Shown piece after piece: positions 14,064 through 57,278 of a DNA stretch of 64,000 nt. Source of the DNA: Escherichia coli (lineage in GTDB: Bacteria > Pseudomonadota > Gammaproteobacteria > Enterobacterales > Enterobacteriaceae). The position numbers and the translations under genes are program-made. Under the pieces are notes generated by a model. It made no database searches. It saw only the letters and a program-made list of their open reading frames with translations, and had not been told where the DNA came from. The stretch lies in NCBI RefSeq assembly GCF_003334385.1, contig NZ_QOWN01000023.1. The stretch is one strand, 5' to 3'. Numbering within the stretch: position 1 is the stretch's first letter; every line of letters starts with the position of its first letter.

Positions 14064-14803
14064 ATGCTGCAAAATATTCGAATTGTGCTGGTGGAGACGT
14101 CACACACCGGCAATATGGGTTCTGTTGCCCGTGCCATGAAAACAATGGGATTAACCAATCTGTGGCTGGTTAATCCACTGGTGAAACCCGACTCCCAGGC
14201 GATTGCCCTGGCAGCAGGGGCCAGCGATGTGATTGGTAATGCTCACATCGTCGATACGCTCGACGAAGCGTTAGCCGGTTGTAGCCTGGTGGTGGGCACC
14301 AGCGCACGTTCCCGCACGCTGCCATGGCCGATGCTCGACCCGCGCGAATGCGGCCTGAAAAGCGTCGCTGAAGCGGCAAATACCCCGGTGGCGCTGGTGT
14401 TTGGTCGCGAGCGCGTCGGCTTGACCAATGAAGAGTTGCAGAAATGCCATTATCATGTCGCGATTGCGGCTAACCCGGAATACAGCTCGCTGAACCTGGC
14501 GATGGCGGTTCAGGTTATTGCCTATGAAGTGCGCATGGCCTGGCTGGCAACTCAGGAAAACGGCGAGCAGGTCGAGCATGAAGAGACGCCGTATCCGCTG
14601 GTCGATGATCTGGAGCGTTTTTATGGTCATCTGGAACAAACGCTGCTGGCAACCGGTTTTATCCGTGAAAACCATCCGGGGCAGGTGATGAATAAATTGC
14701 GCCGTCTGTTTACCCGTGCGCGCCCGGAAAGCCAGGAGTTGAATATCCTGCGCGGGATTCTGGCTTCTATTGAGCAGCAGAATAAAGGTAACAAGGCCGA
14801 ATA

Positions 14804-14804
<1 letters not shown>
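14064..14804 (+). CDS. trmJ: tRNA (cytidine/uridine-2'-O)-methyltransferase (SPOUT)
   Basis: 246 aa SpoU-type product; immediately upstream of isc region. Confidence 0.9.
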
Positions 14805-15180
<376 letters not shown>

Positions 15181-15238
15181 ACGCCACGATAAAAAAATGG
15201 CACTGAAGGTTAAATACCCGACTAAATCAGTCAAGTAA

Positions 15239-15263
15239 ATAGTTGACCAATTTACTCGGGAAT
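15239..15263 (+). promoter_or_regulatory. IscR type-1-like binding site in iscR promoter region
   Basis: ATAGTTGACCAATTTACTCGGGAAT matches the type-1 IscR consensus as I recall it at about 22 of 25 positions; lies ~85-110 bp upstream of iscR ATG. Confidence 0.5.
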
Positions 15264-15346
15264 GTCAGACTTGACCCTGCTATGCAATACCCCCACTTTT
15301 ACAATAAAAAACCCCGGGCAGGGGCGAGTTTGAGGTGAAGTAAGAC

Positions 15347-15835
15347 ATGAGACTGACATCTAAAGGGCGCTATGCCGTGACCGCAATGCTTGACGTTGCG
15401 CTCAACTCTGAAGCGGGCCCGGTACCGTTGGCTGATATTTCCGAACGTCAGGGAATTTCCCTTTCTTATCTGGAACAACTGTTTTCCCGTCTGCGTAAAA
15501 ATGGTCTGGTTTCCAGCGTACGTGGACCAGGCGGTGGTTATCTGTTAGGCAAAGATGCCAGCAGCATCGCCGTTGGCGAAGTAATTAGCGCCGTTGACGA
15601 ATCTGTAGATGCCACCCGTTGTCAGGGTAAAGGCGGCTGCCAGGGCGGCGATAAATGCCTGACCCACGCGCTGTGGCGTGATTTGAGCGACCGTCTCACC
15701 GGTTTTCTCAACAACATTACTTTAGGCGAACTGGTTAATAACCAGGAAGTGCTGGATGTGTCTGGTCGTCAGCATACTCACGACGCGCCACGCACCCGCA
15801 CACAAGACGCGATCGACGTTAAGTTACGCGCTTAA
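15347..15835 (+). CDS. iscR: Fe-S cluster assembly transcriptional regulator (Rrf2 family)
   Basis: 162 aa; N-terminal [19 protein letters not shown]; cluster-ligand cysteines in [13 protein letters not shown]. Confidence 0.95.
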
Positions 15836-15946
15836 TAAAAAGAATTCAGAATCAGGCCGGAGTGCTAAATACTCCGTAAACACGGTCGTACATCCAGCCG
15901 GTAGCCTGATTCCTTGCATTGAGTGATGTACGGAGTTTATAGAGCA

Positions 15947-17161
15947 ATGAAATTACCGATTTATCTCGACTACTCCGCAACCACGCCGGTGGACCCGCGT
16001 GTTGCCGAGAAAATGATGCAGTTTATGACGATGGACGGAACCTTTGGTAACCCGGCCTCCCGTTCTCACCGTTTCGGCTGGCAGGCTGAAGAAGCGGTAG
16101 ATATCGCCCGTAATCAGATTGCCGATCTGGTCGGCGCTGATCCGCGTGAAATCGTCTTTACCTCTGGTGCAACCGAATCTGACAACCTGGCGATCAAAGG
16201 TGCAGCCAACTTTTATCAGAAAAAAGGCAAGCACATCATCACCAGCAAAACCGAACACAAAGCGGTACTGGATACCTGCCGTCAGCTGGAGCGCGAAGGT
16301 TTTGAAGTCACCTACCTGGCACCGCAGCGTAACGGCATTATCGACCTGAAAGAACTTGAAGCAGCGATGCGTGACGACACCATCCTCGTGTCCATCATGC
16401 ACGTAAATAACGAAATCGGCGTGGTGCAGGATATCGCGGCTATCGGCGAAATGTGCCGTGCTCGTGGCATTATCTATCACGTTGATGCAACCCAGAGCGT
16501 GGGTAAACTGCCTATCGACCTGAGCCAGTTGAAAGTTGACCTGATGTCTTTCTCCGGTCACAAAATCTATGGCCCGAAAGGTATCGGTGCGCTGTATGTA
16601 CGTCGTAAACCGCGCGTACGCATCGAAGCGCAAATGCACGGCGGCGGTCACGAGCGCGGTATGCGTTCCGGCACTCTGCCTGTTCACCAGATCGTCGGAA
16701 TGGGCGAGGCCTATCGCATCGCAAAAGAAGAGATGGCGACCGAGATGGAACGTCTGCGCGGCCTGCGTAACCGTCTGTGGAACGGCATCAAAGATATCGA
16801 AGAAGTTTACCTGAACGGTGACCTGGAACACGGTGCGCCGAACATTCTCAACGTCAGCTTCAACTACGTTGAAGGTGAGTCGCTGATTATGGCGCTGAAA
16901 GACCTCGCAGTTTCTTCAGGTTCCGCCTGTACGTCAGCAAGCCTCGAACCGTCCTACGTGCTGCGCGCGCTGGGGCTGAACGACGAGCTGGCACATAGCT
17001 CTATCCGTTTCTCTTTAGGTCGTTTTACTACTGAAGAAGAGATCGACTACACCATCGAGTTAGTTCGTAAATCCATCGGTCGTCTGCGTGACCTTTCTCC
17101 GCTGTGGGAAATGTACAAGCAGGGCGTGGATCTGAACAGCATCGAATGGGCTCATCATTAA
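15947..17161 (+). CDS. iscS: Cysteine desulfurase IscS
   Basis: PLP-lysine motif [12 protein letters not shown] and active-site region SSGSACTS; 404 aa from [16 protein letters not shown]. Confidence 0.96.
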
Positions 17162-57247: not shown

Positions 57248-57278
57248 AAAGCCGACTTTAAGAGTCGGCTTTTTTTTG
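57248..57278 (+). terminator. Intrinsic terminator/attenuator between upp and uraA
   Basis: Stem AGCCGACT/AGTCGGCT followed by TTTTTTT. Confidence 0.7.

Follow-up and report, generated by a model that had tools for sequence, protein, structure and literature searches.

Which letters of the DNA upstream of iscR in Escherichia coli are read by IscR itself, which are read by RNA polymerase, and how far do the two coincide? A first-pass annotation of the window (here, the whole stretch of 64,000 nucleotides that was analysed) had placed at 15239-15263 a sequence, ATAGTTGACCAATTTACTCGGGAAT, matching the type-1 IscR consensus at about 22 of 25 positions, had pointed to a TTGACC just downstream of it, and had taken the arrangement to support autoregulation of the isc operon by holo-IscR. 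The analysis reported here leads us to read 15239-15263 as site B of the E. coli iscR promoter, a type-1 operator that abuts a second one and serves the autorepression of isc by holo-IscR, a reading to which we give a probability of about 96%.

The locus is part of the E. coli chromosome, with the gene order suhB (minus strand), trmJ (plus strand), a repeat array, iscR (plus strand), iscS, iscU, iscA, hscB and hscA, and a 1.2-kb stretch around the site is 100% identical to E. coli K-12 and B strains, in which the flanks are annotated as trmJ and iscR. The iscR gene (15347-15835, plus strand), the first of iscRSUA-hscBA, is an open reading frame of 162 amino acids annotated as IscR WP_001241357.1, and it encodes the very regulator that binds the site. 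The translation of this copy of iscR carries the cluster ligands C92, C98, C104 and H107, together with the discriminating residue E43.

Both ends of this neighbourhood have features of their own. In the gap between trmJ and iscR, four tandem 91-bp units of the REP/BIME type, with matches of 98%, occupy 14804-15170, and Rfam places three copies of naRNA4 (RF02564, a nucleoid-associated ncRNA) at 14866-14937, 14957-15028 and 15048-15119. The segment 14700-15900 is covered to at least 80% in one piece in only 3981 of 5426 E. coli genomes, and for this reason the length of the REP/BIME array appears to be polymorphic. Beyond iscR, the iscR-iscS intergenic region (15836-15945) gives a full-length Rfam match to RF01517, the 'iscR stability element', at 138 bits; according to published work, RyhB binds at a stem-loop that precedes iscS, and the iscR part of the mRNA outlives the degradation of the downstream part.

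Two abutting type-1 sites upstream of iscR

The type-1 IscR consensus, a 25-bp imperfect palindrome, is printed in four papers as ATASYYGACTRWWWYAGTCRRSTAT. Read on the plus strand, 15239-15263 agrees with it at 22 of the 25 positions, the mismatches being positions 10, 17 and 23, and both the position and the count given in the first-pass annotation are thus upheld exactly. The site lies 84-108 nt upstream of the iscR ATG. The match is beyond chance: a site with three or fewer mismatches occurred in none of 100 dinucleotide shuffles, the chance expectation being 0. When the 64 kb were scanned on both strands with up to three mismatches allowed, only two matches were obtained, this one (site B) and ATACCCGACTAAATCAGTCAAGTAA at 15214-15238 (site A), which directly abuts it and agrees with the consensus at 24 of 25 positions. 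The first-pass annotation overlooked site A, the better match of the two. Site B is 'iscRB', the type-1 IscR site of E. coli PiscR that was reportedly described by Giel et al. in 2006 and 2013, and Rajagopalan is said to have used an iscRB probe in 2013.

The distance between these two sites and everything else in the window is large. Over the 128,000 positions scored, the consensus ranking runs 24, 22, then 21 of 25, and then 18 of 25 or fewer. The third entry, AAAGCCGACTTTAAGAGTCGGCTTT at 57248-57272 (21/25 against the consensus, 12.7 bits with the weight matrix described below), was rejected as an IscR site, being an intrinsic terminator: a GC-rich hairpin and a T-run that stand immediately 3' of an open reading frame ending in DKIFGTK and its stop codon, a frame that we take to be upp. 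It exemplifies a false-positive mode of the palindromic type-1 motif.

A scan with a type-1 weight matrix had been named in the first-pass annotation as the way to check the site. We built a log-odds matrix from 91 iscR-upstream sites (at least 20/25 each) outside the Enterobacterales, that is, from a set without any sequence of E. coli or its close relatives. With this home-made matrix, which differs from a curated E. coli matrix and, its orthologous sites having been chosen with the consensus, is not fully independent of it, site B ranked first among the roughly 128,000 positions of the window, at 34.4 bits, the median of the training sites being 28.7. Site A came second by the same non-enteric matrix, with 32.3 bits on the minus strand and 27.3 on the plus strand, and the best match unrelated to either site reached 12.7 bits.

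Two further candidates were met in the immediate surroundings of the pair. Where the two sites join, the right half of A and the left half of B form the inverted repeat GTCAAGTAAATAGTTGAC (15226-15252), and an out-of-register pseudo-site at 15226/15227 matches the consensus weakly, at 15 of 25 positions; this is probably a mere by-product of two abutting palindromes. The literature also names, for E. coli, a third 'minor, nonconserved site C'; a search for it by consensus downstream of site B returned as its best candidates matches of 14-15/25, at 15267 and 15288, which is the background level, so that neither was taken to be site C.

The binding of IscR to this sequence is published. As its iscRB type-1 probe, the Kiley laboratory uses the 30-mer AAATAGTTGACCATTTTACTCGGGAATGTC (PMC12594620), which is identical to 15237-15266 of the window save for one base as printed, CCATTTT against CCAATTT in the genome. 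[2Fe-2S]1+-IscR bound the iscRB probe with a Kd of 22 nM, which rose to more than 1000 nM after oxidation with PMS (PMC12594620), and the type-1 motifs of the isc promoter are described as specific for [2Fe-2S]-IscR (PMC12594620 and others). Published work further reports that holo-IscR represses PiscR-lacZ 32-fold, that apo-IscR is inactive on isc, and that the promoter of the isc operon is repressed by holo-IscR via two type I motifs. The autoregulation of isc proposed in the first-pass annotation is supported by these data on iscRB binding and on repression of PiscR. Binding, its loss on oxidation and the repression of PiscR-lacZ are thus taken from the literature, and the position of the site, its uniqueness, its conservation and the embedded -35 come from the present work.

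Conservation of the operator pair and of its spacing

With a degenerate pattern for the N-terminus of IscR we retrieved 120 iscR loci from a species-level genome collection, 119 of them with enough upstream sequence to be scored. Within 250 nt upstream of iscR, a site of at least 20/25 is present in 96 of the 119 gamma- and betaproteobacterial loci, the highest score in shuffled upstream regions being 18. In five of the 119 loci no site reaches 18/25, and some of these five may be iscR paralogues, as with the second Variovorax locus (L036). In the 96 sites, A8 is found in all, G7 in 94, and T5 and T6 in 89 and 85, respectively; since the consensus had served to pick the sites, conservation within the 25 columns is in part a circular result, whereas the shuffle control and a -10 signal in the flanking DNA (see below) are not.

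At closer range, six Enterobacterales were aligned (E. coli, E. albertii, Citrobacter werkmanii, Superficieibacter electus, an Enterobacter sp. and Yersinia aldovae). Here 14 of the 25 columns of site B are invariant, including ATAGTTGAC and GAAT, and the blocks TAAATAGTTGAC and GAATGnCAGACTT are likewise invariant across all six species. Of 5426 complete E. coli genomes, all but one (5425) contain the 157-bp promoter region, and in 5421 of these its identity is 99% or higher. Only one partial promoter match stands among the matches listed, that of strain 27992, a blood isolate (NZ_CP195627.1). In this strain the left half of site A, with its left end ATACCCG, is lost through a 44-bp deletion at about 2456-2500, corresponding to about 15177-15220 of the window, which spares site B, the core promoter and iscR.

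The pairing of the sites is itself conserved. In enterics, Vibrio, Shewanella and Pseudomonas, site B is preceded, at a distance of exactly 25 bp, by an orthologous site A. A spacing of exactly 25 bp was found in 18 tandem pairs, all from Gammaproteobacteria, and one of mostly 27-30 bp in 31 other pairs, whose loci belong mostly to Betaproteobacteria as read from the record titles: 27 bp in Burkholderia, 28 bp in Bordetella and 29-30 bp in many Burkholderiales. Rheinheimera, with 27 bp, is a gammaproteobacterial exception to the 25-bp rule. One might imagine that a spacing of 27-30 instead of 25 bp places the two IscR dimers on different helical faces, perhaps with another, cooperative or looped, mode of repression, and that isc is partly derepressed in strain 27992, ideas that we consider doubtful.

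The proposed promoter elements at site B and the iscR leader

The left half of site B contains a TTGACC of its own (15243-15248, plus strand), which we read as the -35 hexamer of PiscR and whose first five bases, TTGAC, are invariant in the six Enterobacterales. Across the 96 loci, the otherwise flat base composition downstream of the 25-mer shows an excess of A, A and T at site positions 29, 31 and 33; these would correspond to positions 2, 4 and 6 of a -10 element held at a fixed 17 nt past the -35 (site positions 5-10). In E. coli, the predicted element is an extended -10 at 15263-15271 on the plus strand, made up of TG (15263-15264), one base, and the hexamer CAGACT (15266-15271), 17 nt after the -35. 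A simple sigma-70 scan of 14750-15950 called no promoter, as CAGACT matches the -10 consensus at only three of six positions. The silence of the scan was rejected as evidence for the absence of a promoter, the -10 hexamer being weak and accompanied by the extended TG.

Counting from this putative -10, transcription of iscR would begin near 15279 (a G) and yield a 5' UTR of about 68 nt (15279-15346). Mapped onto the MG1655 record NZ_CP032679.1, this predicted start falls at about 2,662,202 on the minus strand. Presumably, sites A and B occupy -65 to -41 and -40 to -16 relative to the E. coli start, which agrees with the start proposed here. A full-text literature search for the sequence of the iscR promoter or UTR gave no match. 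In Yersinia, Vibrio and Pseudomonas, the distance from the start of site B to the ATG is only about 64-68 nt.

The leader itself was also inspected. The 5' UTR of iscR is a pairing target of the small RNAs FnrS and OxyS (PMC11572966). It contains a small hairpin, CCCC-GGGCA-GGGG (15312-15324), which is preceded by an A-run and looks like a terminator on the minus strand; the outer C-G pair of this hairpin is G-C in Superficieibacter (L101), and the shorter Yersinia UTR does not have it. Compared with shuffled sequences, the iscR 5' UTR as a whole does not fold more stably (z = +1.16).

Alternative readings, mechanism and comparison with known systems

The second TTGACC, at 15271-15276, on which the first-pass annotation had remarked, is indeed there, but it is not significant and is not conserved among enterics. 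Were it the true -35, site B would lie upstream of the core promoter and IscR would act from there without occluding the -35, and the presence of a good -10-like sequence, TACAAT at 15300-15305, might be cited in favour. However, TACAAT stands 23 nt away, no -10 was found 16-18 nt past the hexamer, and the promoter scan calls nothing in the region. Moreover, the hexamer reads TTGATC in E. albertii, TTGCCC in Citrobacter, TTGGCT in Superficieibacter, TTGCGT in Enterobacter and TTCTGG in Yersinia, its first two bases belonging to the invariant block CAGACTT and the remainder being variable; the -10 signal seen across species keeps its phase with the TTGAC of site B; and the short distance to the ATG in Yersinia, Vibrio and Pseudomonas leaves no room for a downstream promoter and a UTR. 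We therefore judge this arrangement to be very improbable. Counting both strands, the window holds 29 copies of TTGACC, and the one at 15271-15276 would fall at about -8 to -3 relative to the predicted start. On the sequence evidence, this copy is coincidental, and the functional one would be the -35 inside site B (15243-15248).

The same embedded hexamer invites the opposite objection, namely that site B is nothing other than a sigma-70 -35 with its spacer, its resemblance to the IscR consensus being a by-product of the promoter. Indeed, TTGACC agrees with the -35 consensus at five of six positions, and no part of the site is better conserved than TTGAC. Yet the right half (positions 15-25, TACTCGGGAAT) belongs to the spacer, whose sequence sigma-70 leaves unconstrained, and it is conserved nonetheless, with T18 in 94 and C19 in 75 of the 96 sites and only A or G at position 20; in addition, binding of holo-IscR to this oligonucleotide is directly published (PMC12594620), and the objection keeps practically no weight. 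If the site is an IscR operator, it could still be one of type 2, bound by apo-IscR as well and so regulated independently of the cluster, given that one protein binds both types and that both have AT-rich ends. Against this, at offsets of -3 to +3 the site matches at best four of the nine specified positions of AxxxCCxxAxxxxxxxTAxGGxxxT, which is background, and its positions 5-6 are TT where type-2 sites have CC, a feature of the half-site that is said to exclude apo-IscR through E43 (PMC8561392); since apo-IscR is, besides, reported to be inactive on isc, a type-2 identity is extremely unlikely. An operator for another regulator, such as the Rrf2 paralogue NsrR, would be in keeping with the binding of Rrf2-family proteins to related AT-rich palindromes, although nothing specific at this locus points that way. 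Against it, the site stands immediately upstream of iscR orthologues in 96 of 119 genomes, and the published binding data are for IscR (PMC12594620), so that we attach next to no probability to it.

The reading of 15239-15263 as site B of a type-1 operator pair suggests how the repression would work. One [2Fe-2S]-IscR dimer sits on each of the two sites. The dimer on site B would cover the -35 (15243-15248) and almost all of the 17-nt spacer, as far as the TG of the extended -10, and the one on site A would cover the region where an UP element or a contact of the alpha-CTD would fall. With site B over the -35 and spacer and site A upstream of it, occupancy by holo-IscR would exclude RNA polymerase and repress iscRSUA-hscBA-fdx, the mode of repression presumably being steric occlusion. 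When the demand for Fe-S clusters rises, or when the cluster is scarce, oxidised or lost, IscR leaves the type-1 sites and the isc operon is derepressed, the outcome being a homeostatic loop of negative feedback.

Site B is already known and established; it is the type specimen itself, and its recognition brings no new E. coli biology. Its value is that of a positive control, in which a textbook operator of Fe-S homeostasis was recognised from raw sequence and then upheld quantitatively. To the first-pass annotation the present work adds that the operator is an abutting pair of which only the weaker consensus match had been reported, that the likely -35 is located within site B, and that the TTGACC downstream is probably a coincidence.

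How, then, does this operator compare with known systems? With 'iscRB' of E. coli PiscR there is no substantive difference, the locus being the same and the 25 bp being identical to those of the window. The type-2 IscR sites (hyaA, sufA, ydiU) are bound by the same protein and also overlap or embed a -35 hexamer; however, they have CC/GG cores and serve regulation by apo-IscR, whereas site B has TT in its left half-site and the low type-2 match already given.

A close parallel is found in Pseudomonas aeruginosa PAO1, in which the transcription start was mapped and footprinting placed site B of iscR, ATAGTTGACCTAATTACTCGGATAA, at -42 to -18 (PMC3899308, PMC6599224). Mutation of that site abolishes both IscR binding and repression, and the authors place it over the recognition elements of RNA polymerase, the -35 and -10 regions (PMC3899308, PMC6599224). 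The P. aeruginosa and E. coli sites B share 20 of their 25 bases, including ATAGTTGACC and TTACTCGG, and both species have the TTGACC hexamer, taken here as the -35, and a further type-1 site at a distance of 25 bp on the upstream side. The promoter geometry proposed for E. coli is consistent with the mapped start and with the footprint of site B in P. aeruginosa. In spite of these similarities, the two systems differ in several respects: the 5' UTR of iscR is about 40 nt longer in E. coli than in P. aeruginosa; and in Pseudomonas the primary site, of high affinity, is B, which favours the binding of IscR to a weak site A (68% match), whereas the E. coli site A is the closer of the two to the consensus (24/25) and the two E. 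coli sites are said to be bound independently of each other.
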